DNA of 64,000 nucleotides from a virus. Numbering within the stretch: the first letter of the stretch is position 1; each line of letters opens with the position of its first letter. The notes beneath the pieces were generated by a model. It had not been told where the DNA came from and did no database searches. It was given only the letters and a program-made list of their open reading frames with translations. This document shows, in pieces, positions 7,350 through 56,675 of the stretch. Made by a program: the position numbers and the translations under genes. The stretch lies in the IMG/VR virus record IMGVR_UViG_3300026290_000001. One strand, 5' to 3'.

Positions 7350-7802
7350 ATGGAAATTCTTATTAAAGGTATTTTTCATGAACGCACAGAAGATGCTCCT
7401 TTTATTGGGGCATTAATCTGTGCAAATAATTGTAAATTTAATTGCCCTAATTGCTATAATAAAGAATTAAAATTTTCACCTAGTTATTATATAAATGATA
7501 ATGAAATAATTCAAGAGGTAAAATCCAATCTATTTAATAAAGGTATTATTCTTGCAGGATTAGAATGGACTTTACAAGCAGAAGAAATGTTTAGGTTAAT
7601 TGAATTAGCATTAAATAATCAATTAGAAATTATTTTGTATACTGGAATGGATTATGATGTATTAATTAAAAAGTTTCCTGAGTTATTGAATTATCATATT
7701 TATATAAAAACAGGCAAGTATATAAAGGAATTATCAACAGATGATAATATTCAATTTGGAGTTAAATTAGCAAGTTCAAATCAAAAAATATATAAAATAT
7801 AG
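7350..7802 (+). CDS. nrdG: anaerobic RNR activating protein (radical SAM-like)
   Basis: Cys cluster CANNCKFNCPNC near N-terminus; directly downstream of nrdD. Confidence 0.6.
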   Translation: MEILIKGIFHERTEDAPFIGALICANNCKFNCPNCYNKELKFSPSYYINDNEIIQEVKSNLFNKGIILAGLEWTLQAEEMFRLIELALNNQLEIILYTGMDYDVLIKKFPELLNYHIYIKTGKYIKELSTDDNIQFGVKLASSNQKIYKI

Positions 7803-7987
7803 AAAGGAGGGAAATAACCATACCACAATTCATTCTCTGTAAAAAAACAACTTGTCCTAACCCGAACATGAAAATCATCCTTACAATGATTTTATAAATT
7901 TATGTGATGATAATGATGAGTATAGATATTTTGTGAAGATTCGTGAAACTGACAAAGTGATTAAATTAGATGTAAATAAAAAAGAAG

Positions 7988-8431
7988 ATGAGGAGAAAAT
8001 TGATGAATATTAAAATTAAATACTTTAATGACCAACTAGAAAAAATACAAAAAATATCTCAAGGAGATTGGATTGATTTACGTTCATCTATTAATTGTGA
8101 ATTAAAACAAGGAGAATTTAAATTAATACCACTAGGTGTTGCTATGGAATTACCAAAAAATCATGAAGCACATATTGTTCCTAGGTCAAGTACTTATAAA
8201 AATTTTGGAATTATTCAAACTAATCATAAAGGCGTAGTTGACGAATCTTATTCGGGCAATAACGATCAGTGGTTTATGCCTGTTATTGCCTTTAGAGATA
8301 CAAAGATAAATATGAATGACAGAATATGTCAATTCAGGATTGTAGAAAAAATGCCAGAAGTTAATTTTATTGAAGTTGAAGAATTAGGTAATAAAGATAG
8401 GGGAGGGCATGGAAGTACAGGTATTCAATAA
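7988..8431 (+). CDS. dut: dUTP diphosphatase (dUTPase)
   Basis: dUTPase motifs PRSS and [10 protein letters not shown]-terminal Gly-rich RGGHGSTG. Confidence 0.7.
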
Positions 8432-8496
8432 ATATAGCAGAGGTTATCCCTCTGCTATCCCTTCAATAAACAATTTAATTCAAAGGAGGCAATTAT

Positions 8497-8691
8497 ATGA
8501 AATGTACCGATCCTAAATTATGCATCCACTATTTTGAATTTGATATTTCACCAACAAAAATAAAATCAGTTTGTATAAAACATGAATTTGATATTAATTT
8601 TCACAACATAAATCAAATAGAAAAATGCCAAGATCATAAAACATACGAGCAAGCTAGGGAAGAACGGAAAAACTACTTGAAAATTAATTAG
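8497..8691 (+). CDS. hypothetical protein
   Basis: ORF with RBS AAAGGAGG. Confidence 0.25.
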   Translation: MKCTDPKLCIHYFEFDISPTKIKSVCIKHEFDINFHNINQIEKCQDHKTYEQAREERKNYLKIN

Positions 8692-9290: not shown

Positions 9291-9554
9291 ATGGATAATA
9301 TAATTAAACAAATACGTAAAATTATTGGAAATAATGATTCTAGTCATATACAAGTTAATATTGGTATTAATGAGATATGGTTTAATATCTATGAATCGGA
9401 AGTATTGATAACTATTGATACAAAAAAGAAAGAAATTTACGTTGACTGTGAATTATCAAACCATCATTTAACTAGCAGTATGTTATACGAATTATATATG
9501 ATTACTGAATTATTAGAAACTAAATGGGATGTGTTTGAGGAATTATTAAAATAG
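9291..9554 (+). CDS. hypothetical protein
   Basis: ORF co-oriented in module. Confidence 0.25.
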   Translation: MDNIIKQIRKIIGNNDSSHIQVNIGINEIWFNIYESEVLITIDTKKKEIYVDCELSNHHLTSSMLYELYMITELLETKWDVFEELLK

Positions 9555-9568
9555 AAAGGAAAGGTAAA

Positions 9569-10240
9569 TTGATTAAAGTAGAAAATATAGAAGTGTTCAA
9601 TTTTCAAGGGGCTTTAAGGGGCATGCGGAATCCTTTAGAATCTTGGGATAAATCAGATAGTTATTGGAATGACACTACTATTGAAAGTGTCAAAGATTTC
9701 ATCATTGGTGAAAAAGATATGACACTTGCTTTAAAACTTATTAAAGCAGGAAATGAACATGCAAAATTCATGCGTCAAATTTTTGTCTCAATGGATATTA
9801 CTGCGCCTTTATATTGGTGGAAGGAAGCAGACACATATAAAATTTCTACAGTAGCAAACAGTACATCCACTATGCACAAAATGGGCAGCAGACCATTAAT
9901 TTATGAAGATTTTTCTTGGGATAAATTCTTTGAAACAAATTTAGGTAATATTACTGATGAATATATCTACAACTCAATTGAAAAATACCGACAGGATACT
10001 TTATCTCACTTAAACGAATTGATAGAAATATGGCAGGAACGAAGAGATAAGAAAATATGGCTGGCAATAATTCAAAACTTACCTTCTTCGTTTAATCAAA
10101 TGAGAACTTGGACTGGTAATTATCAAGTATTAAGAAATATGTATTTTCAGAGACGTAATCACAAGTTAAAGGAGTGGAAAGATTTTTGTAAGGTGATTGA
10201 GGAGTTACCTTATAGTGAATTGATTATAGTGGAAAAATAA
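9569..10240 (+). CDS. ThyX-like (flavin-dependent thymidylate synthase fold) protein lacking the canonical RHR motif
   Basis: Segment ITAPLYWWKEADTYKISTVANSTSTM loosely parallels the ThyX region around the RHRxxSxxxxSxR motif but without the Arg/His residues; placed among nucleotide-metabolism genes. Confidence 0.3.
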   Translation: MIKVENIEVFNFQGALRGMRNPLESWDKSDSYWNDTTIESVKDFIIGEKDMTLALKLIKAGNEHAKFMRQIFVSMDITAPLYWWKEADTYKISTVANSTSTMHKMGSRPLIYEDFSWDKFFETNLGNITDEYIYNSIEKYRQDTLSHLNELIEIWQERRDKKIWLAIIQNLPSSFNQMRTWTGNYQVLRNMYFQRRNHKLKEWKDFCKVIEELPYSELIIVEK

Positions 10241-10257
10241 AAAGAAAGGAAGAATAT

Positions 10258-10788
10258 ATGAAAATAATAAATATATCGGGCAAGGCGCAACACGGGAAGG
10301 ACACAACGGCATTAATTTTAAAAAAGAAATTAGAATCAAAAAATAAAAAAGTTATAATAACTCACTATGCAGACCTACTCAAATATGAAGCAAAACAATT
10401 TTTTAATTGGGACGGAAATAAAGATGAAAAAGGTAGACAAATACTTCAGTATATGGGTACTGATGTAATAAGAAAAATAAATCCTGATTATTGGGTTAAT
10501 TTCATTAAAGAATTTATGTCAATGTTTGAAAATGAATGGGATTATGTAATAATTCCTGATTGCAGGTTCCCCAATGAGATTGAAGTGTGGGGCATTGATA
10601 ATTGGCCTAATGTATCGGTTAGAATTATTAGAGATAATTTTATTAGTAATCTCACTCCTGAACAATTAAATCATCCATCTGAAACTGCTTTAGATGATTA
10701 TGAATTTGATTATTACATATTTAATTCTGATGATATAAATTATTTAAATAAAGAAGTAGATTATTTAGTTGAATGGCTGGAGGTATAA
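10258..10788 (+). CDS. P-loop nucleotide/nucleoside kinase (dNMP-kinase-like)
   Basis: N-terminal Walker A ISGKAQHGKDT. Confidence 0.4.
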   Translation: MKIINISGKAQHGKDTTALILKKKLESKNKKVIITHYADLLKYEAKQFFNWDGNKDEKGRQILQYMGTDVIRKINPDYWVNFIKEFMSMFENEWDYVIIPDCRFPNEIEVWGIDNWPNVSVRIIRDNFISNLTPEQLNHPSETALDDYEFDYYIFNSDDINYLNKEVDYLVEWLEV

Positions 10789-11346
10789 ATGAAAAGAAAG
10801 TTTTTTATTGATTTTGATAATACAATTATAGATACAACCAACGCTTTCTGCGCAGTTTATAATGAGCTTTATTGCGATCATCCTAATTTTAAAACAGCAG
10901 AACCAGATCAAGTTAAGGTTTACAATTTTTCTGACGAATGTCCTTTAGTTACAAATGTAGAAGAAATTTTTACTCATCCATTATTCTTTCAATTTGCAGA
11001 ATTTATAAATCACAATACATATGAAACTCTAGAAAAATTAAACAATAAATATCAACTTATAGTATGTTCAATAGGTTGGCCTAAAAACTTAGCATACAAG
11101 GCACGTTGGTTGGAAGAAAAACTACCTTTTATTAAAGACTATGTTCTAATCAGTAATCCTACATGCAAAATGAATAAGAGCATTGTAAATATGGAAGGTG
11201 CAATATTTTTGGACGATATACCGTCAAACTTATATAGTTCAAATGCTGAAAGAAAGATATTATTTGGTAAGAGATATATTTGGAATAAAGAATGGGATGG
11301 AGAATGGGTAAGAAGTTGGAGTGAAGTTGAAGGAAGGTTTTTGTAG
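10789..11346 (+). CDS. HAD-family 5'(3')-deoxyribonucleotidase-like
   Basis: N-terminal FIDFDNTIIDT (DxDxT HAD motif I). Confidence 0.5.
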   Translation: MKRKFFIDFDNTIIDTTNAFCAVYNELYCDHPNFKTAEPDQVKVYNFSDECPLVTNVEEIFTHPLFFQFAEFINHNTYETLEKLNNKYQLIVCSIGWPKNLAYKARWLEEKLPFIKDYVLISNPTCKMNKSIVNMEGAIFLDDIPSNLYSSNAERKILFGKRYIWNKEWDGEWVRSWSEVEGRFL

Positions 11347-11398
11347 AAGAATTAAAATAGTAATATAAATATATGTTTATATAATAAACATTATTTAA

Positions 11399-11734
11399 GA
11401 TTTAGTTAAATTTAGTTATAGGACAATCATAGGTGTTCATAAGTTTATATGGGAAAATGGTGAACCATATAGACCAAATTATTTAAGTGATTTATTTAAA
11501 AAGACAGTTACTGATAATAATTTACCACCAATAAGACTGCATGATTTAAGACATACATTCGCAAGTGTAGCAAATGAATTAGGAGTTGGATTATATGATA
11601 TTAGCAAAGCATTAGGTCATAGTCAAATAGGTACTACTAGCGAAATATACACACATATGTTTGATAAGACCCATAAGAAAACCATTAGTAAAGTTGCCGA
11701 TGCCTTTAAAGAAACAGAAAAAAATAAGGAATGA
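11399..11734 (+). pseudogene. tyrosine recombinase/integrase C-terminal fragment (no start codon, about 110 codons)
   Basis: Open frame after a TAA stop encodes ...IRLHDLRHTFASVANELG...LGHSQIGTTSEIYTHMF (H-x-x-R box and catalytic Tyr region) but lacks the N-terminal 2/3 and any ATG start. Confidence 0.6.
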
Positions 11735-11790
11735 TATTTCTACCATTCCTTACATTCTTTATACATTTTTTAAAGTTATCCACAGGCTAC

Positions 11791-11812
11791 AAATCCCAAT
11801 ATATAGGCATTT
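11791..11812 (+). repeat. recombination-site-like core, copy A (aaatcccaatatataggcattt)
   Basis: Imperfect palindrome (aaatccc / 8-9 bp AT spacer / ggcattt); 20 of 22 nt identical to copy B, same orientation. Confidence 0.5.
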
Positions 11813-11856
11813 GTTTTTCTGAAAATCATGATAAAAACCTTATTTGGTTCAAATTA

Positions 11857-12216
11857 TTATCTAACTTGTTCTTTCCATGCATTTCCAAATTGCTTTTTCA
11901 ATGTTTTTAAAGACGATTCAATTAAAATTTGAATTTCACTTTCAGTTAAAGCAATACCTTTTTTATTCAACATTTCCGATAAAGCAATAAATGCTTCTCT
12001 ATATTTAGTTTGACCATCAACATCTTTAAAACTCTTTTGAACATATAAAACTGCAAGTCTAGCTAATTCTTGATTAGTCTGAATTTCATGATCAATCTTT
12101 TTAAGATTCTCTATACCTAATTTTTTCTTTAAAAGTGCAATTATAAAATATGAAAAAATCAATCCTATGATATACATAATATTTAAAAATAATTCACTAA
12201 TGATTTGATTATCCAT
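11857..12216 (-). CDS. membrane-anchored hypothetical protein (lysis cassette)
   Basis: N-terminal hydrophobic segment; directly downstream of endolysin. Confidence 0.3.
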   Translation of the reverse strand: MDNQIISELFLNIMYIIGLIFSYFIIALLKKKLGIENLKKIDHEIQTNQELARLAVLYVQKSFKDVDGQTKYREAFIALSEMLNKKGIALTESEIQILIESSLKTLKKQFGNAWKEQVR

Positions 12217-12236
12217 ATGTAACCTCCCTCTACCCT

Positions 12237-12953
12237 CTACTTCTTCAATTCTTTAAGTAAATATTCAACGGCATTATCAATTAAAACAGCACATTCTATT
12301 CGTGTAATACTACTATTAGGATCTAAAATCCCATCGCCTTTACCAGAAAGTATTTTCTTCTCATATAATCTATCTGCACTTTTTGCTCCCCAATGATCTT
12401 TAGGCAAGTCTTTAAAATACTTTGACATTTCTTCAATCACCTTACCTTTCAACAATTCCTTCTGAACTTCATTTTTAAATTTATCCCATGTCCAACCTAA
12501 ATGACCTGCTCTTATTAAACGTGGACAATTTTTTCCATTCCAATCCCAATGCTGTCTTAATGATTCTACATTTTTATTTTTAGATTTTAATAATTCTGCC
12601 ACAAGTAAAACTGCATTTTCTAATGTTTTTTGGTAATTCCCACTTTCACATATTTCAATTCCTATACTACGTCTATTACCAGCACCACTTCCTCCATCTC
12701 CTGCGTGCCAAGCATTTTCAAATAAAGGAATACATTCAATTGCTTGTTTTTCATCAATGGCAATATGATAACCTGTAGAAGATGTATTTGAAGGATTGGT
12801 TAAATAATCTCTTTCATTTCTTGCAGTAGATTTTGAATTCCCTGTGTTGTGAATAGTAATATATTCCCAATCCATTTTATATTTTGGACGTTTATTAGAA
12901 TTCATAGGAATGTGATCTATTACATAAGGAAAAGGTAAATTAAATTTACTCAT
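12237..12953 (-). CDS. endolysin, N-acetylmuramoyl-L-alanine amidase (amidase_2/PGRP-like)
   Basis: HNTGNS...GYHIAID...AWHAG...SIGIEICE...CPRL motifs typical of amidase_2 domain; adjacent to holin. Confidence 0.75.
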   Translation of the reverse strand: MSKFNLPFPYVIDHIPMNSNKRPKYKMDWEYITIHNTGNSKSTARNERDYLTNPSNTSSTGYHIAIDEKQAIECIPLFENAWHAGDGGSGAGNRRSIGIEICESGNYQKTLENAVLLVAELLKSKNKNVESLRQHWDWNGKNCPRLIRAGHLGWTWDKFKNEVQKELLKGKVIEEMSKYFKDLPKDHWGAKSADRLYEKKILSGKGDGILDPNSSITRIECAVLIDNAVEYLLKELKK

Positions 12954-13217
12954 TTATTTTTCACCACCTTTAACTAATCTCTCAATAAAGTCCGTTCCAG
13001 CATATCCAACGGTAATAAAAACTATCATTATCAACTTGCTTGTTTCAACACCTAGTAAGGCAATAGCAGTTATAGTCCCAATAGCACAACTTACCAATAA
13101 ACTTATAAATATTTGAGGTAAACTTTTATTGTTATTTACAACCATTCGTAAGACTTGACCTGCCATTCCTAAGATTGCACCTAGCAAAATAAATGATTGA
13201 ACTTCAAAAATATTCAA
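12954..13217 (-). CDS. holin
   Basis: 87-aa protein with two to three hydrophobic helices and charged C-terminus, immediately upstream of the endolysin. Confidence 0.6.
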   Translation of the reverse strand: MNIFEVQSFILLGAILGMAGQVLRMVVNNNKSLPQIFISLLVSCAIGTITAIALLGVETSKLIMIVFITVGYAGTDFIERLVKGGEK

Positions 13218-13239
13218 TTTACCACCTCAGAATTAAAAA

Positions 13240-13536
13240 TTAAATACTAGGAATATTGTCATTATCATCCAAAGTATTTATATCATTTATATTATTACTA
13301 TAATCAGGTTTATCAGGCCAAGTATTATGTTTACTTAAATTTTCAAATAATGATTTTACACAATAAATTAATGTCACTCCGATTATTTGAATGACGATTT
13401 TTTCTGAAAGATTTTCAGCAATTTGTTCTCTTCCTAGAAAGGCCAATAAATAAGAAAGATAAACCCAAATTACGCTGTTAATCATTAATAAATAAACTAT
13501 TCTTTTGCTAAATTCATCTATGTTAAATATTTTCAT
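13240..13536 (-). CDS. small membrane protein
   Basis: Hydrophobic segments; lysis-cassette context. Confidence 0.3.
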   Translation of the reverse strand: MKIFNIDEFSKRIVYLLMINSVIWVYLSYLLAFLGREQIAENLSEKIVIQIIGVTLIYCVKSLFENLSKHNTWPDKPDYSNNINDINTLDDNDNIPSI

Positions 13537-13547
13537 AACTCACCTTC

Positions 13548-13772
13548 TCACAAACGTATTTGTTGATGACAACTTGGACAATGTTCAATAGGTGAAGCAG
13601 GATAAGTTATTATATAATAAATAACCCATAAAATTACTAATAACCAAAACAATGGAGAACGAATAATAGTTGATAATATATTCCAAACTAAAAACAAGAT
13701 ACCTTGAATAAAAGATGTAGTTATATCTGTTATGTTATTAAAAAATATATCTACTTTGTTTTTATATTTCAT
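13548..13772 (-). CDS. small membrane protein
   Basis: Two hydrophobic helices. Confidence 0.3.
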   Translation of the reverse strand: MKYKNKVDIFFNNITDITTSFIQGILFLVWNILSTIIRSPLFWLLVILWVIYYIITYPASPIEHCPSCHQQIRL

Positions 13773-13779
13773 AATCTAC

Positions 13780-14361
13780 CTACTTTAAAACCATACTTAT
13801 CACTGCACCAAATCCCATAGACATTGCAATTATAAATAAATTCTTTAAAATATCTGATAATTTTATTTTATTATCACCACTTACTTCATCAATCTTCTTG
13901 CTTAATTTCTCCACACTAACTTCTGTACTGTTCATTCTATTGCTTAGTACGTCTAATGAATTACTGATCTTCGCTTGATTTTCACTAATTTCAGCAATCA
14001 ATTTATCTCTTTTAATTCCGTCTTCTCTCTGTAATTTTGTGAGCAATTGGAGTTCGGACAAAACACTTGTAATATCATATATTTTGTTTGTTTGGCTTTC
14101 CAAATCATCTATACGGTGATTTGCCACCTTTATTTTTTCATCAACATTCTTAAATACTTCGGCACAAATTTTTGGTTGTTCACATTCTTGATTTATGACC
14201 AATTCACAACACCATCCAATCTTTGTATTCATTCCTCCTTTGCGGTATAATGGGTACAAGGTAATTAATTTGACCGCAAAATTAATTACCATAACGAATA
14301 AGGCAGGATACCTATTTTTATCCTGCCTTATTTTTATTTTATTAAATTTAAAAAATCTCAA
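13780..14361 (-). CDS. coiled-coil protein with C-terminal membrane anchor
   Basis: Heptad-like central region, hydrophobic C-terminus IIAMSMGFGAVISMVL. Confidence 0.3.
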   Translation of the reverse strand: MRFFKFNKIKIRQDKNRYPALFVMVINFAVKLITLYPLYRKGGMNTKIGWCCELVINQECEQPKICAEVFKNVDEKIKVANHRIDDLESQTNKIYDITSVLSELQLLTKLQREDGIKRDKLIAEISENQAKISNSLDVLSNRMNSTEVSVEKLSKKIDEVSGDNKIKLSDILKNLFIIAMSMGFGAVISMVLK

Positions 14362-14375
14362 AAAATCATTTTTAA

Positions 14376-14397
14376 GAATCCCAATATATAGGGATTT
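14376..14397 (+). repeat. recombination-site-like core, copy B (gaatcccaatatatagggattt)
   Basis: Imperfect palindrome about 60 bp downstream of the XerD-like recombinase stop; direct repeat of copy A. Confidence 0.5.
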
Positions 14398-14456: not shown

Positions 14457-15461
14457 TTATTGATAGAAATATTGAGTATAACTTTGTTGCTTGTGTTCAA
14501 ACGTTTGTTTTGCGTAAATGCCCGTAGTTTGAATATCATCATGACCTAAAAGTTCTTGTAATACCGACATTGGACAACCGTTATTTAGCATCAAGGTTGC
14601 GAAAGTATGTCTGAGCATATGGGGATGAGTTCTCTTGTCAAGCCCTGCACGTTTACCTATTGCTGCTATTTCTCGTTGAATACCTCGATTGCTTAATCTT
14701 CTATATTCCTGCCGTTCTGTTACAAATAATGCTTCACAGTCATCCTTACGACTTTCAAGATATTTTTTAAGGTAAATTGCAGCTCTAGCAGAATAGAATA
14801 CAATTCGCTCTTTGTTTCCTTTGCCTAATACCTTAATCGTCCGATTTGATTGTCCTATATCATCTTTATTTAGTGCCGATATTTCAGATAATCGACAACC
14901 TGTTGAATACATAATTTCAGTTAATGCTTTTTCTCGCAAAGTGAAACAACTTTCACGGAATAGTTCCAATTCTTCAATTGTTAATGCCTTTGCCATTGCT
15001 TTTCCCACTTTATAAGGTTTAATTCTAATCATCGGATTTTCTTCAATAATCTGTTCCTCACAAAGCCATTCAAAGAAACTGCGAAGTACTGAGCGAATTG
15101 TCTCAACAGTACTTTTAGCATTTACTGTTGGGTCGCTTTCCCGATCATCCAGATAGTTAATTATGTCCTGCTTGGTTATTTCATTTACTGGTTTTTCTTC
15201 GGTTCTATCGGTAAATATTTTAAGATGAAGTCGATAATTATCAATAGTTATTGGACTTAATCCTTGCCGTTTTTTATCCTTCAAAAACAGTTTTATGTTT
15301 TTCCGCAAATTATAATATTCTGGATCGCTGTTTTGTTTTATAACTCTGTATTCATCAAGAATGGAGGCTAATTGATTTTTAGCCTCCATCTTATTCATGC
15401 CTTTTTCTATGATTCCATCTACAATTTTAGCATATAGCTCATAATTGAGATTAGGGTGCAT
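14457..15461 (-). CDS. XerC/XerD-like tyrosine site-specific recombinase
   Basis: RLSE (box I Arg), GKGNKER, HMLRHTFAT (H-x-x-R), LGHDDIQTTGIYA (catalytic Tyr). Confidence 0.8.
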   Translation of the reverse strand: MHPNLNYELYAKIVDGIIEKGMNKMEAKNQLASILDEYRVIKQNSDPEYYNLRKNIKLFLKDKKRQGLSPITIDNYRLHLKIFTDRTEEKPVNEITKQDIINYLDDRESDPTVNAKSTVETIRSVLRSFFEWLCEEQIIEENPMIRIKPYKVGKAMAKALTIEELELFRESCFTLREKALTEIMYSTGCRLSEISALNKDDIGQSNRTIKVLGKGNKERIVFYSARAAIYLKKYLESRKDDCEALFVTERQEYRRLSNRGIQREIAAIGKRAGLDKRTHPHMLRHTFATLMLNNGCPMSVLQELLGHDDIQTTGIYAKQTFEHKQQSYTQYFYQ

Positions 15462-15729
15462 AGAATACCTCCTTTTATTTAGTTGTTACTGAAGGTTCAT
15501 AGTCTACTGCGAAGTAACTTCTTAATACACATTTGCGAAGTCAGAAAACTTTTTAACCAATATCAAACAACCCCGACAATTTCTCTAACTTTTTCCCTAT
15601 ACATATTAGGCACAAAATCAATTATAATTCGCCCACTTTCTACTGCATATACCCACATTCCTAATATAGCTTCACTCATATCATTCATCTCCTTTTAGAT
15701 TAAACAATTCGGTTCTTAACATATCGATT

Positions 15730-17187: not shown

Positions 17188-18030
17188 TTACCTCACCACC
17201 TTTAGCTGAATTGGCAAACTAACTTCAGGTTTATCCATCGCATATAATGTTATAGAATTATTAGCAGTTGTTACACGATAAATTTTACCCCACTCATTTA
17301 CTCGTTCTTTATCTGTAGCAAATGTGCCACTCATTACTACGTCAACTATAGGATTGTCATTTGACGATATTCCAGTTACCGTTTGCGTTTTCGTATATGG
17401 GGCTTCTGTACCTGTCCAAGTAGTATCAAGTGTTGTCGTAAGCGTAGCGTGATATACGTGTCCTAATTTACTTATTGTCGCACCATCTGCCAGATGGTTA
17501 GCAAACTTTTTCCCAACCCCACTAACCAAAGGTCTTTTATCGACAATTATATTTACAGTTTTATCCGCATTTGTACTAATAGTACCAATTAATAGACTTC
17601 CATCTGTAATTGTTCCATCTATACTACTAGCAAAATTTCCATCATTTTTAAGATATATAGTATAGGTTATACTGGCCGATACTGGATTAATAGTAAAAGT
17701 TGTATCAGATGTTTTAGTTATAGTATTTATTGTATTTCCACTAAATGTTTCACCAGTACCACTAGCAATAACTATACTTAATGTATCTGTACCACTCGTA
17801 TAAAATGCAGATTTTATTCTAAATGGACTATCCAATTCTAATGAATTTAATAAAAATCTCGCATCTTTCCATGTTGCTCCTAAATCTCTAGGATCAGTAC
17901 CACCTAAAGTAACATTTGCATCATCAGCAACATGGATAATATCTAAACCACTATATTTATTTCTAATTTCTGCTACTTGCTCATCTGTATGTATAGCAAA
18001 TACTTTGCTATTTTTAATTACACAAATCAT
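17188..18030 (-). CDS. tail fibre protein
   Basis: Shares a roughly 110-aa domain (about 75% identical by eye) with the adjacent tailspike; Ser/Thr/Gly-rich. Confidence 0.45.
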   Translation of the reverse strand: MICVIKNSKVFAIHTDEQVAEIRNKYSGLDIIHVADDANVTLGGTDPRDLGATWKDARFLLNSLELDSPFRIKSAFYTSGTDTLSIVIASGTGETFSGNTINTITKTSDTTFTINPVSASITYTIYLKNDGNFASSIDGTITDGSLLIGTISTNADKTVNIIVDKRPLVSGVGKKFANHLADGATISKLGHVYHATLTTTLDTTWTGTEAPYTKTQTVTGISSNDNPIVDVVMSGTFATDKERVNEWGKIYRVTTANNSITLYAMDKPEVSLPIQLKVVR

Positions 18031-18049: not shown

Positions 18050-19813
18050 TTACACTATTATCCATGAACCTTTATTTCCCTCAGAATTAGGTTCAGGAGA
18101 GAAAATAGGACTGCCACTATAATTAGAACAACGTACATATCCATTGTTATATGCAAATATATCAATTAAACCTGCATCACCAACATTAGAATTTGAAGCA
18201 AATAAAGAACCTTCTTCACAACAATCTATATTGTATTCCACATTGTTTTTTGCAATAATTCCCGAACTAAATCCTTTTCCACCATTATTAACTGTTAATC
18301 CTGATTTATTTCCACAAACACATATATTTTCTGCCATCATACCCCCACCAGTAGAATCATAAGCACCTTTTTCAGAATTACCATTTGCTATACAATTATT
18401 TATATAAATCCCTGCGAAATTGGAACATTCATAACCATTTTCATTATTGGAAGATGCTGTATATGGTGCAGTAATACCTGCTCTGTTAGTTACAAAAAAA
18501 CCAGATTTAAAACCAGATACTCCAACATTTGTACCACAAGTTATGCTTGCGCCTGTTGTTGATAATATTCCATAATTAGTACTAGCATTAGAACCAATAA
18601 TTGCAACATTATTTAATAATCCTAATTCAGAACGGTCAGCAACAATACCATTACAATTTGTAAATTTTAACGTTGTAGTTAAAACAACAAAATCTCCACC
18701 CGTTAATGCAACAGCAGGGAATGGAGTACCTTGAAAAGTATTTTTAACCGTTACTACGTTTCCATTTATATTTATAATTTCATACATTCCACGTAAAACT
18801 TCATGATTACCTGTGCCTGTAGTATTTTTTATAATAGCATATTGTCCTACTTGCATACCTACTGCACTAGCAACTGTTATAGGTACAGACCAATTTCCAG
18901 CAGTATCAGAAACACTACCTACGTTTGAAACGGTTGTGGCAATAGGAGTAGCACCAATTATTCTTATATTAGAACCATTAACATGATTTATTTTAAGTTG
19001 AGAAGTATGTTCATACATTTCTGTTAATAAAGAAATAGTTACAGTAGTTGAACTAGTTATACTAGCAGTTTTTATACTATCTAAAGCATTTGGTATTGTA
19101 GTAAAATCACATCCAGTAGAGCCAACAGTTATAGTTTTATTGGCATCTATAATAGTATCTGTTAAATGTTTAATAAATTCACTACCTACAGCACTAACTA
19201 AAGGTCTTTTATCAGTAATTGTATTTATAGATTTATCTGCATTGGTACTAATTGTTCCTATTAAAATACTTCCATTTGGAATACTACCATTTGTACTTTT
19301 ATCAAAATTACCATCATTCTTTAAATAAATATTATAGGTCACGCTAGCACTTACTGGATTAATATTAAAAGTAGTATCAGATGTTTTTGTAATAGTGTTT
19401 AAAGTAGTACTATTAAAACTTTCACCTGAACCCGAAGTAATTATTATTGATAAAGTATCTGTTACTGAATTATATTCAGCAGATTTTATCTGAAACGGAT
19501 ACCCATATACATCTTCTACATTACTTTTTAAACTATCATGATCATATGCTGTAAATAATCTTCCTATTATCGTTCCATTACTCCATGTCTGTGCTGTCCC
19601 TTGAAATCCCCTAGTTACACCAACCAAACTACTACCACTTTTATCTGTATATAAAATAGTTTCTGCATTATTACCAGTTCCTATAGTAGCAAGATTAGGT
19701 GCATTGGGAAAAACTGAAATATCAGTTACGGGGATGGTAGTTGCAATACTATTTATATCAGAAGAAAGTGTTGTAAGAGGGGAGTTAATTTTAGCATTAT
19801 ACATTGTTTCCAT
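18050..19813 (-). CDS. tailspike with right-handed beta-helix (pectate-lyase-like) domain, putative depolymerase
   Basis: Repetitive N/G/S-rich coils (NCNGIV...NNVAIIG...GTNVGVSG...NNCIANGN...) typical of parallel beta-helix; N-terminal domain shared with neighbour. Confidence 0.5.
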   Translation of the reverse strand: METMYNAKINSPLTTLSSDINSIATTIPVTDISVFPNAPNLATIGTGNNAETILYTDKSGSSLVGVTRGFQGTAQTWSNGTIIGRLFTAYDHDSLKSNVEDVYGYPFQIKSAEYNSVTDTLSIIITSGSGESFNSTTLNTITKTSDTTFNINPVSASVTYNIYLKNDGNFDKSTNGSIPNGSILIGTISTNADKSINTITDKRPLVSAVGSEFIKHLTDTIIDANKTITVGSTGCDFTTIPNALDSIKTASITSSTTVTISLLTEMYEHTSQLKINHVNGSNIRIIGATPIATTVSNVGSVSDTAGNWSVPITVASAVGMQVGQYAIIKNTTGTGNHEVLRGMYEIININGNVVTVKNTFQGTPFPAVALTGGDFVVLTTTLKFTNCNGIVADRSELGLLNNVAIIGSNASTNYGILSTTGASITCGTNVGVSGFKSGFFVTNRAGITAPYTASSNNENGYECSNFAGIYINNCIANGNSEKGAYDSTGGGMMAENICVCGNKSGLTVNNGGKGFSSGIIAKNNVEYNIDCCEEGSLFASNSNVGDAGLIDIFAYNNGYVRCSNYSGSPIFSPEPNSEGNKGSWIIV

Positions 19814-22448: not shown

Positions 22449-23741
22449 TCAGTCATGAGATGAATTGGCTCTGTTCTGTTCATATATAATCCATGATTTT
22501 CTTGCATTAATTCTTTGCATGTTAGATATTTTCGGTGTCTTCATACCTCTGGGTGCATTACTAAAATCTATTTTTTCACCATCTATACCCATAAGAATGG
22601 CATAACCCGTAGACATTCTACCTTTAATAAAATATTCATTACCTATATACCTTACTTTATCAAACTTCCTAAATCCTTCTATTTTACCTGTAGGTATCTT
22701 CTGATGACTTCTTACTCCTTTTGCCTGTTGGTAATCGCCTTTAGGGATACACTTTTTTAATACAGCTTTTTCAGTTTTAAAGCTTACATCAATTAACCCT
22801 ATATCTTCAATATTATTTAAACAGGCAATAGCTACAGCATCGTAGTAATGCTCTTTTGGTAATCCCATTAGCTGTCTATGTTCTTTGGTAATAAATCCAA
22901 AGGTTTCTTTTGCATTTGGTAGCTGTCTTAATAATTGTTGTCTTATACTATTCATCTGTGTTGTGTGTTTTAATTGTCCTTTAATTTTACCATTCTTCTT
23001 TAATTTAATTCCTCCTTTGTGCAAACTATTATGACAAGTTTTACAAAGTGTAATTAAATTTTCTGCATCATCTGAGCCACCATTTTTTCTAAAAACTATA
23101 TGATGTACCTCTAATCTGCTGTCTTTACTTTTTCCTTTGCAATACTGGCAAATATATTTATCTCTACTTAATACATAAGCTTTAGTATTAGCAAATCCAT
23201 AATTAGTTCCTTTTTGATAAAGCCATTTATTACTTAATACTGCTGGATTTTTTAAAGCATGTGGGTCAAATGTTGCTGTTTCTATTATTATATTTGTAAT
23301 GGGCATTATTGATTTTGCAAAATCAATTTCTTTTAAGTGTGAATTAATTTTACTTGTCATTGTAGGAGAAAATCTATCTTTTTTAATGCTGTTTTTCCTA
23401 TTATTAAATCTAGGTTCCCTATATCTAGTTTTCCTATTCCTTCTAGTTCTCCTATATTTAGCTCTTTTGTCCATTTTGTCAGATATATCATTTCTAATTT
23501 CTACTTCTGATATATAATACACTTCATTTTCGTCATTTGCTACTGCACTTCCTATTTTACTACTACCAGTATCAATTCCTAAAGTTAAATCTTGTGTATA
23601 GTCTGTAGCATGATATAGTAATTTAATTGTAAATGGAGTTCTTCTTATGCATTTTGCTTTACCATCTTTTAACAATAATCTTGCTATTGCTGGTTTACAA
23701 GGCATTAAAGGACTCCCATCTTCATTAATTACATAAACCAT
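22449..23741 (-). CDS. iscB: IscB-type RNA-guided nuclease (OMEGA system effector; PLMP + split RuvC + HNH)
   Basis: N-terminal PLMP motif (GSPLMPCKPAIARLLLKDGKA), RuvC-I LGIDTGSSKIG, Arg-rich bridge RRTRRNRKTRYREPR, RuvC-II IIIETATFD, HNH CQYCKGK...EVHHIVFRKNGGSDDAENLITLCKTCH, RuvC-III HYYDAVAIA. Confidence 0.75.
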   Translation of the reverse strand: MVYVINEDGSPLMPCKPAIARLLLKDGKAKCIRRTPFTIKLLYHATDYTQDLTLGIDTGSSKIGSAVANDENEVYYISEVEIRNDISDKMDKRAKYRRTRRNRKTRYREPRFNNRKNSIKKDRFSPTMTSKINSHLKEIDFAKSIMPITNIIIETATFDPHALKNPAVLSNKWLYQKGTNYGFANTKAYVLSRDKYICQYCKGKSKDSRLEVHHIVFRKNGGSDDAENLITLCKTCHNSLHKGGIKLKKNGKIKGQLKHTTQMNSIRQQLLRQLPNAKETFGFITKEHRQLMGLPKEHYYDAVAIACLNNIEDIGLIDVSFKTEKAVLKKCIPKGDYQQAKGVRSHQKIPTGKIEGFRKFDKVRYIGNEYFIKGRMSTGYAILMGIDGEKIDFSNAPRGMKTPKISNMQRINARKSWIIYEQNRANSSHD

Positions 23742-24030
23742 AAAATCAAATCCTTTCGGATAAATACTCTGCTTAAAAGCAGGTTATGCGTATCTATATA
23801 CTATTACCATATATAGAATTCGTCCTCATCTCGACAATGATAAAATAGCTTATATGTATATCACACCGAGCCTTACCCTCCAACTCTACTTAGTGATATA
23901 CGATAGAGCAATGGTCTGATGCGTCAACCAAAGGTATCATAACTATTCTATCGTAGTATAAATTTCTCTATACTAAGTCTGGTGAACTTAGACTTTAGAA
24001 GCCTCCGACTTTAGTCGGGGGTAGTTCACT
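23742..24030 (-). ncRNA. candidate omega-RNA scaffold upstream of iscB
   Basis: About 285 nt with no ORF, GC-enriched relative to surroundings, several stem-loops on the - strand (cccccgact-aaa-gtcggagg; ctaagt-tcaccag-acttag; ctgct-ttta-agcag) directly 5' of iscB. Confidence 0.45.
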
Positions 24031-36507: not shown

Positions 36508-37545
36508 TTACAAATCACTTAAAGATTTATTTTCTACTTGTTTAATCCCATCTTCATCAAAATACTTACCTAATTCCTCATCTATCTCAGTGTCATTATA
36601 TAATGACACCATATTCGTACTCTCCCAGCCAACTACATCTTTAATTACATCTGCTGGAATATTTGCTTGGCAAAGTGCGGTTGTAAAATAATGTCTATTT
36701 GAATGCCAATACCAATCTATACCTAAAATATTAGAAAAAGTTATTGCCCAAGAATTTAATAAAGATATAGTGCCTGGTTTCCATACACTATTTCTTTTAT
36801 TCCAAAATAACTCTTCCCCTTCAATGCCTAATTCTTCACGTTGCTTCATCCATAAATCAAAATAAGGTTTAAATTTAGAAACCAAGATATACCTATAAAT
36901 CATTTTACCCTTAGAACTTCTACCCTTTGTTTTTATCTTTTCAGGAGTTTTATATAAAGCACCGTATTTAATATTTTCTTCTGTAAAATGACTTACTTTA
37001 AACCTTAATAATTCTGCCTTTCTTGATCCACTACTTACTGCCAATGCAACTGCACATGCTTGTTGATATTTGCCTTTTTCAACTAAATAATTAAGCAATT
37101 CGTCAACTTGTTCATCTGCAAGGACAGTTTTATCCCTAACATTTACTTTTACTGGTGCAGGGATTTTATTAACTATATTGCGAAAATTAGGGTGAATGTC
37201 ATCTAGCATTGCCTCTATATAATTAGACATACTACTAATTGCTGACTTCAATCTTCTTACTCTATTAGGACTAAGATTTTGTGTATTCACAAGCCAATTC
37301 TGATATTTTAAAATATCACGTTTAGTAAAATCTATAAAAAATTTATTATCATTATATTGTAAATTCCATACCCAACAAATTTCAATATCATTTTCATAAC
37401 CTTTTATAGTGGCATGAGACATATCTTTCCCTCTGCAATAATCTAAAAATTCATTAAGTAAATCTTTATTTTCTTTTGAAACTCGTTTCCACAATTCAGG
37501 AGTTACAATTGTATGTTGTTCGGTTTTCCTTGCGATTATAATCAC
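36508..37545 (-). CDS. tyrosine recombinase / phage integrase family protein
   Basis: SGSRKAELLRFK (box I Arg), WHSNRHYFTT (H-x-x-R), GWESTNMVSLYND (Tyr). Confidence 0.7.
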   Translation of the reverse strand: MIIIARKTEQHTIVTPELWKRVSKENKDLLNEFLDYCRGKDMSHATIKGYENDIEICWVWNLQYNDNKFFIDFTKRDILKYQNWLVNTQNLSPNRVRRLKSAISSMSNYIEAMLDDIHPNFRNIVNKIPAPVKVNVRDKTVLADEQVDELLNYLVEKGKYQQACAVALAVSSGSRKAELLRFKVSHFTEENIKYGALYKTPEKIKTKGRSSKGKMIYRYILVSKFKPYFDLWMKQREELGIEGEELFWNKRNSVWKPGTISLLNSWAITFSNILGIDWYWHSNRHYFTTALCQANIPADVIKDVVGWESTNMVSLYNDTEIDEELGKYFDEDGIKQVENKSLSDL

Positions 37546-56599: not shown

Positions 56600-56675
56600 T
56601 GGAGCCGAGTATAGGATTTGAACCCATAATCTGTTGTTTACAAGACAACTGCCTTATCAATTTGGCTAACCCGGC
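56600..56675 (-). tRNA. tRNA-Thr (anticodon UGU), CCA encoded
   Basis: 76-nt cloverleaf folded by hand: 7-bp acceptor stem, T-arm with TTCAAAT loop, anticodon stem GTTGT/ACAAC with loop CTTGTAA. Confidence 0.7.

Follow-up and report, generated by a model that had tools for sequence, protein, structure and literature searches.

One of the closest described systems is found in dairy phages, where lytic derivatives of temperate phages have lost lysogeny modules or keep int genes in truncated form; an example is phage TP-778L of Streptococcus thermophilus, whose truncated integrase gene arose by recombination of a complete int with a resident truncated int during excision (PMC3952083). The locus described here resembles TP-778L in that an integrase fragment lies beside the lysis cassette and in that part of the lysogeny module was lost by deletion, but its junction is a deletion at a 2-bp microhomology, with no second copy involved. 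Deletions in Sfi-type phages were reportedly studied by Bruttin, Lucchini and Brussow. The phage studied here is much larger than these dairy phages, at about 135 kb as judged from its longest contigs, and besides the remnant it still has two tyrosine recombinases that are intact.

Integration at the tmRNA gene (ssrA) by tyrosine integrases is well documented for prophages and genomic islands of Enterobacteria, Vibrio and other bacteria; this class is reportedly also discussed in 10.1101/2020.11.02.365908. In agreement with it, intact homologues lie immediately 3' of tmRNA genes, and the ancestral attP carries the tmRNA 3' end between arm-type repeats. The stretch of viral DNA that was analysed, 64,000 nucleotides long and called the window below, differs from them in having no attP core, no arm sites and no working enzyme. 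The ssrA-linked homologues found here belong to uncultured or poorly studied Clostridia and are known from sequence. With the lambda-type integrases that have an AP2-like arm-binding N-terminus, the relatives share the three domains, the arm repeats and an HTH_17 partner, whereas in the window nothing but the final ~94 residues of the catalytic domain is left. We consider it very likely that the interval is a non-functional relic of a lambda-type integration module.

The open frame and the integrase remnant

The relic lies where two blocks of genes meet. An early block on the + strand (RecD-like helicase, NrdD, NrdG, dUTPase, dNMP kinase and NT5C) ends with NT5C, which anchors the synteny with the relatives, and on the - strand a lysis and late block (holin, an amidase that carries an SLH domain, tail genes and an ORF of tape-measure size, 2014 aa long) ends with the holin, which defines the convergence point where an earlier note on this DNA had placed the frame. 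The features of the locus are collected in Table 1.

Table 1. Features in and around the integrase remnant, in window coordinates.
Feature	Position	Strand	Evidence and remarks
NT5C-type 5'-nucleotidase	10789-11346	+	PF06941, E 5.1e-10; last intact early gene
NT5C-to-xis spacer	11347-11449	+	Exact match to L004 up to 11450
Deletion junction	11449-11450		2-bp microhomology (AT)
Integrase remnant	11450-11734	+	Pfam, phrog_1 and tblastn; keeps H48, R51, H74 and Y84
Terminator-like hairpin	11724-11753	-	13 pairs, then TTTTTTCTGT; pattern scan
~96-nt insert	11760-11855		Between hairpin and holin stop; in window, L022 and L053; absent from L021/L024-27 and L004/L005
Core copy A	11792-11811		Palindromic, AATCCCAATATATAGGCATT; inside the ~96-nt insert, 58 nt downstream of the fragment
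Holin	11857-12216	-	PF09682, E 8.9e-14; last gene of the lysis/late block
Endolysin	12237-12953	-	Amidase_2 and SLH domains
Core copy B	14377-14396		AATCCCAATATATAGGGATT; 61 nt past the stop of the 334-aa integrase
Intact tyrosine integrase	14457-15461	-	334 aa, Xer-like N-terminus; PF00589, E 3e-41; SAM_4 and SAM_1
Second intact tyrosine recombinase	36508-37545	-	345 aa; PF00589, E 3.4e-14; SAM_4

The G+C content of the window is about 28%. It rises to 0.34-0.37 between 14000 and 18000, against about 0.28 elsewhere, in a region that holds the intact integrase and adjacent tail-protein genes. A 300-nt repeat with 75% identity occurs at 17485-17784 and 19157-19456, and a tRNA-Thr gene (anticodon TGT) lies at 56600-56675 (-). 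In the late region, 22449-24029 (-) encodes a 430-aa IscB-like protein with RRXRR and HNH domains, immediately downstream of a HEARO RNA (full-length Rfam match at 23819-24029, 121.7 bits); this is an IscB/omega-RNA (OMEGA-type) element.

The frame at 11399-11734 (+) comprises 111 codons and a TGA, with a TAA directly before it at 11396-11398. The earlier note had described it as an open frame without a start, and this is borne out: an ORF search found none of at least 30 aa initiated by ATG, GTG or TTG in this frame, and the first conventional start codon is that of M87 (ATG at 11657). The remnant has neither a start codon nor a ribosome-binding site. Against the reading as a silent relic it may be set that an ATA at 11429 stands 5 nt after an AGGA.

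The same note's assignment of the frame to the C-terminal catalytic region of a tyrosine recombinase agrees with the profile searches. PF00589 matches with an E-value of 1.2e-11 (45.1 bits, cut-off 27.1), residues 16-89 of the frame corresponding to profile positions 97-170 of 172, which is the C-terminal half of the catalytic domain only. The frame is also matched by PHROG phrog_1 (integrase; E 3.8e-20), and the motifs quoted in the note are present: LHDLRH, with H48 at 11540-11542 and R51 at 11549-11551, LGHS, with H74 at 11618-11620, and IYTHM, with the tyrosine nucleophile Y84 at 11648-11650. The boundaries given for the frame hold, but they are not those of the integrase. Integrase homology begins at W18 (11450), so that the true integrase part has 94 codons and the TGA, and the first 51 nt of the frame (11399-11449) are spacer DNA from downstream of NT5C, identical to the NT5C-to-xis spacer of a related phage contig, L004. 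That this spacer reads open is chance.

The remnant corresponds to residues 290-378 of homologues that are 378 aa long, with 81% identity. When a full-length homologue of this kind was used as a tblastn query against the window, it matched 11450-11713 (residues 290-377) and, at 22% identity, the intact integrase at 14457-15461; no other part of it is encoded in the 64 kb. The upstream exon or alternative start that the earlier note had named as a possible way back to a full-length protein was thus looked for by tblastn and not found, and the note's pseudogene reading stands. The remnant is also, as had been proposed, a third and distinct recombinase. To the integrase at 14457-15461, which is of a different lineage, it is 36% identical over 47 aa, and it gives no tblastn match at E<=10 to the recombinase at 36508-37545.

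The catalytic set of a tyrosine recombinase, R-K-H-R-H/W-Y, is incomplete in the remnant. Alignment with the proteins P0053 and P0055 and the protein of L028 places Arg-I (in the LGLRREE segment) and the beta-hairpin Lys, two of the six residues, in the absent part. The core-binding (SAM-like) and arm-binding domains are missing as well; both are found in relatives, and neither is encoded anywhere in the window. From what is known of tyrosine recombinases, a protein that lacks two of six catalytic residues, both DNA-binding domains and a start codon would be unable to recombine DNA. The missing start codon by itself suggests that the remnant is not expressed.

The proposed ancestral module and its deletion

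The close relatives of this locus were found in metagenome contigs, through exact-protein look-ups of short database matches; when IMG/VR was scanned with the fragment, with NT5C and with the intact integrase, two near-identical contigs and otherwise only distant matches came up. A megablast search of 9500-13500 against a GenBank collection of phages found no cultured relative. In the relatives L004, L005 and L053, as the comparison proposed in the earlier note had anticipated, a longer gene lies at the same locus between the same flanking genes. The order in L004, L005, L021/L024-27, L022 and L053 is NT5C, an excisionase-like (xis-like) HTH_17 gene, attP, int, the hairpin and the holin, and the window can be aligned to this order on either side of a 1,375-bp gap. 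In L004, a contig of 6.6 kb, ThyX, dNMP kinase and NT5C are followed by about 1.8 kb before the lysis genes, where the window has 0.5 kb; NT5C and its downstream spacer are 94% identical in nucleotides between the two.

The xis-like protein was found in L004, L005, L022, L024 and L053, with 68-78 aa. In the attP of the relatives, GTTCGACTCCCCCGCCTCCACCA is preceded by two and followed by three TAGGTAGACA arm repeats, five in all. The core reproduces the 3' end of a tmRNA gene (L004 and L005). In Clostridia loci this tmRNA 3' end is GTTCGACTCCCCTCGCCTCCACCA, which the L004 core matches at 23 of 24 positions, and TAGGTAGAC arm repeats are common to the L004 attP and the tmRNA-linked loci. A tRNA scan found no tRNA in the relatives' attP; the tRNA-like end there is the tmRNA 3' end. 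The full-length integrase has an AP2-like arm-binding N-terminus, a SAM-like core-binding domain and a catalytic domain (PF14657, PF14659 and PF13102 with PF00589).

A scan of bacterial genomes found intact 378-aa homologues in genomes and MAGs of Clostridia and Bacillota, among them Anaerobacterium chartisolvens and Ruminiclostridium sufflavum, and these homologues match 68-71 of the 94 remnant residues. The tmRNA gene ends ~150 nt upstream of the int start in five of nine loci (L028, L029, L031, L034 and L035). The features by which an ssrA-targeting module is recognised are therefore found in relatives, and in the window the attP core and arm sites have been deleted. The decayed module would thus have been a classical ssrA-targeting xis-attP-int unit, as read from these alignments. 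The SLH domain of the endolysin and the tmRNA-linked homologues in Clostridia together point to an S-layer-bearing clostridial host.

Two other members of the integrase family were observed in damaged form. In Ruminiclostridium sufflavum DSM 19573 (L037), an integrase at 7686-8666 and 15518-15703 is split just after HDLRH by about 6.85 kb of inserted DNA; codons 314-327 occur on either side of it, which means that the integrase gene itself has been the target of an insertion. In L007-L009 (for example L007 at 1237-1605), a truncated copy with residues ~257-375 only adjoins a 23S_rRNA_IVP gene, AbiEii and a relaxase, apparently as part of a mobilisable element. A conserved family of "mini-integrases" was also considered, all 49 word-index protein matches being no longer than 188 aa, and was rejected, since many of these matches are cut by contig ends or are pieces of pseudogenes and since intact 378-aa homologues exist.

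The lesion in the window was placed by comparison with L004. The two agree base for base up to 11450, where L004 continues into the xis-like gene, and the window resumes at L004 position 4908; L017 and L019 also run on beyond this point. The deletion is 1,375 bp, from L004 position 3533 to about 4907, and it removed the xis-like gene, attP and the first ~290 int codons. The junction reads AAGTTTATAT|GGGAAAATGG in the window, where L004 has AAGTTTATAT|TGAGG on the left side and ATGGCAT|GGGGAAATGG on the right. Nothing in the 64-kb window matches the deleted DNA, which so was not relocated there. An ancestor of this ~135-kb phage of anaerobic Clostridia would have carried an xis-like HTH gene, a tmRNA-derived attP and a ~378-aa integrase gene between NT5C and the end of the lysis operon. 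In the lineage of the window, a single 1,375-bp deletion between 2-bp microhomologies took attP, the xis-like gene and some three quarters of int, and it joined the NT5C spacer in frame to int codon ~290. What remains is probably transcribed only passively, at the 3' end of the early operon.

None of the phage-borne alleles recovered is intact; all are damaged, in five different ways. L053 has an in-frame loss of about 72 codons, in the arm-binding domain. L005 has a frameshifting loss of about 124 nt that contains the LGLRREE (Arg-I) segment, and L004 has the same type of loss and a nonsense codon. L021 and L024-27 have lost about 830 bp, comprising the right half of attP and the 5' end of int. 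L022 has lost about 1,050 bp at an ATAT microhomology and keeps xis, and the window has lost 1,375 bp. The remnants of the window and L022 differ at 1 nt in 267 and their deletions are non-nested, each keeping DNA that is absent from the other, so these two deletions are independent and recent. The same holds for L053 and L004/L005, each of which retains what is lost in the other. The large deletions could be secondary erosion of genes that were already dead, and the minimum number of independent first hits is for that reason two. The window allele is the one most frequently assembled.

Retention of the 3' end and other readings of the fragment

All five alleles keep at least 88 C-terminal codons. 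Between alleles, the dN/dS of the retained 86 codons is 0.19-0.23, much as for the functional neighbour NT5C (0.07-0.26), and no stop or frameshift was found in the retained segment of any allele. The sole comparison that postdates truncation is that of the window with L022, with its one difference in 267 nt, and given this near-identity the low dN/dS reflects divergence before truncation and is not a measure of relaxation. We read it as divergence while the gene worked, followed by recent and separate inactivations; continued selection predicts the same value.

Continued selection would be expected if the C-terminal fragment were functional, as a small protein (a modulator of tyrosine recombinases or a trans-acting half-enzyme) or as a selected cis element. 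We regard this as improbable. The dN/dS of about 0.2 and the frame that is unbroken in every allele are in its favour, but with the window and L022 1 nt apart there has been no time for decay since truncation. Three sequences, P0001, P0002 and P0003, do have an ATG and are called as proteins of 91-136 aa, yet the N-termini of the called ORFs vary by allele and come from the junction or from internal Met codons. The window allele has no ATG, GTG or TTG start and is uncalled in any assembly: in four independent assemblies of 35-138 kb the gene callers leave this 510-nt interval empty. A protein made from it would have neither Arg-I nor the Lys nor any DNA-binding domain. That at least the last 88 codons have escaped each of the five types of lesion is the remaining point for a function, and here a cis role is predicted for the last ~30 nt only.

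This role is that of a terminator. The hairpin of Table 1 overlaps the last codons of the remnant and its stop codon, its sequence is conserved in L004, L021, L022, L024 and L053, and it is a predicted terminator of the convergent lysis operon. The extreme 3' end of the remnant would double as the T-tract of this terminator, as the pattern scan suggests. Deletions that reach into the hairpin, or into the holin 100 nt further on, would be selected against, which accounts for the very end being kept and does not explain all 280 nt.

Phages that insert into the 3' ends of genes commonly carry a duplicate of the gene end, and the fragment could in principle be such a duplicate, linked to attP and taken from the 3' end of an integrase gene, of the host or of a mobile element, that the phage targets. 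The homologous integrase of Ruminiclostridium sufflavum is interrupted just after HDLRH, and 58 nt beyond the fragment there is a palindromic site, both of which fit. Nevertheless, sister phages carry a contiguous longer gene with its own promoter-proximal attP and xis at exactly this locus, the 5' boundary of the fragment is a simple microhomology deletion junction with no att core, and the host sequence in the ancestral attP is the 3' end of tmRNA and not of an integrase gene, which together leave this reading with a negligible probability.

A sequencing or assembly artefact, or an intact gene that is frameshifted or interrupted with its 5' part nearby, has as little chance of being right: metagenome assemblies can collapse or become chimeric around mobile modules, and several break near the integrase at 14457-15461, but at least six assemblies, made from different samples, have the same junction (four of 35-138 kb, and two IMG/VR contigs with 99.98-99.99% identity to the window), NT5C ends 103 nt upstream, which leaves no room for ~290 codons, and N-terminal integrase homology is absent from the whole 64 kb.

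Neighbouring recombinases and a possible repeated loss of the tmRNA route

The earlier note had taken the remnant together with copy A of a core site as a sign of past module replacement. The link to copy A is not supported. The remnant's own att site lay upstream of the gene and was removed by the deletion, and copy A lies downstream, in the ~96-nt insert that some sister alleles lack; the position of the old att site and the variable insert mark copy A as unrelated to the remnant.

Copies A and B share a 21-nt near-palindrome, in direct orientation, on either side of the lysis cassette (11857-14361). Copy A is built as ACAAATCCC-AATATATA-GGCATTTGT and copy B as AAGAATCCC-AATATATA-GGGATTTCT; each is internally symmetric and lox-like, and their alignment shows no extended homology outside the 21-nt core and a 14-nt palindromic motif. 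If both copies were substrates of the 334-aa integrase, the lysis cassette would be excisable. Occurrences of the 21-mer in other viral contigs are coding coincidences and carry no information on recombination: there are seven foreign matches, at least five of them in one conserved context, which in L046 is the inside of a 403-aa ORF (peptide MPIYWDL).

Past replacement of one recombinase module by another, which the earlier note had suggested, is a plausible hypothesis, made reasonable by the second, intact integrase 2.7 kb away; the contigs of the older alleles end before that integrase. Contigs of several independent assemblies (L058, L063 and L064) end 12-73 nt upstream of the start of this 334-aa integrase, at about window position 15,530, and these ends hint at structural heterogeneity, for example a functional attP or the end of a prophage. 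In L063, an IS200/IS605-type Y1 transposase with TnpB/OrfB lies at about 1070-2900 (window ~14404), 8 nt from core B and downstream of the intact integrase. The other intact recombinase, at 36508-37545, adjoins the 2014-aa ORF of tape-measure size, an unusual place for a recombinase.

A gene relic of this kind is well known and ordinary, and it would not surprise a phage specialist. What is added here is a reconstructed ancestral module, a clue to the host and a series of independent decay states. In annotation, only 11450-11734 of the frame should be kept, under the label of a remnant, and the fragment should not be counted as an integrase when the temperate lifestyle or the integration site of the phage is judged. 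The ancestral lifestyle of the lineage that is indicated is integration at the tmRNA gene of Clostridia.

The five decay states of one lysogeny module also form a small natural series, which could serve for studies of the ways in which large temperate phages lose or swap integration. At least four to five distinct lesions of the module coexist across metagenomes, and it is possible, though we would put it forward only tentatively and think it rather unlikely, that the relic is a sign of lysogeny at the tmRNA site being lost, repeatedly and to this day, from a natural population of a ~135-kb Clostridia phage. On that reading, the low dN/dS would mean that each allele was functional until recently, and the ~90 codons that are always kept at the 3' end could act as a spacer, or as a platform for the terminator, where the early and lysis operons converge. 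Repeated loss, if true, would point to active selection against the tmRNA route, or else to the Xer-like integrase at 14457-15461, with its lox-like sites on either side of the lysis cassette, having taken its place.
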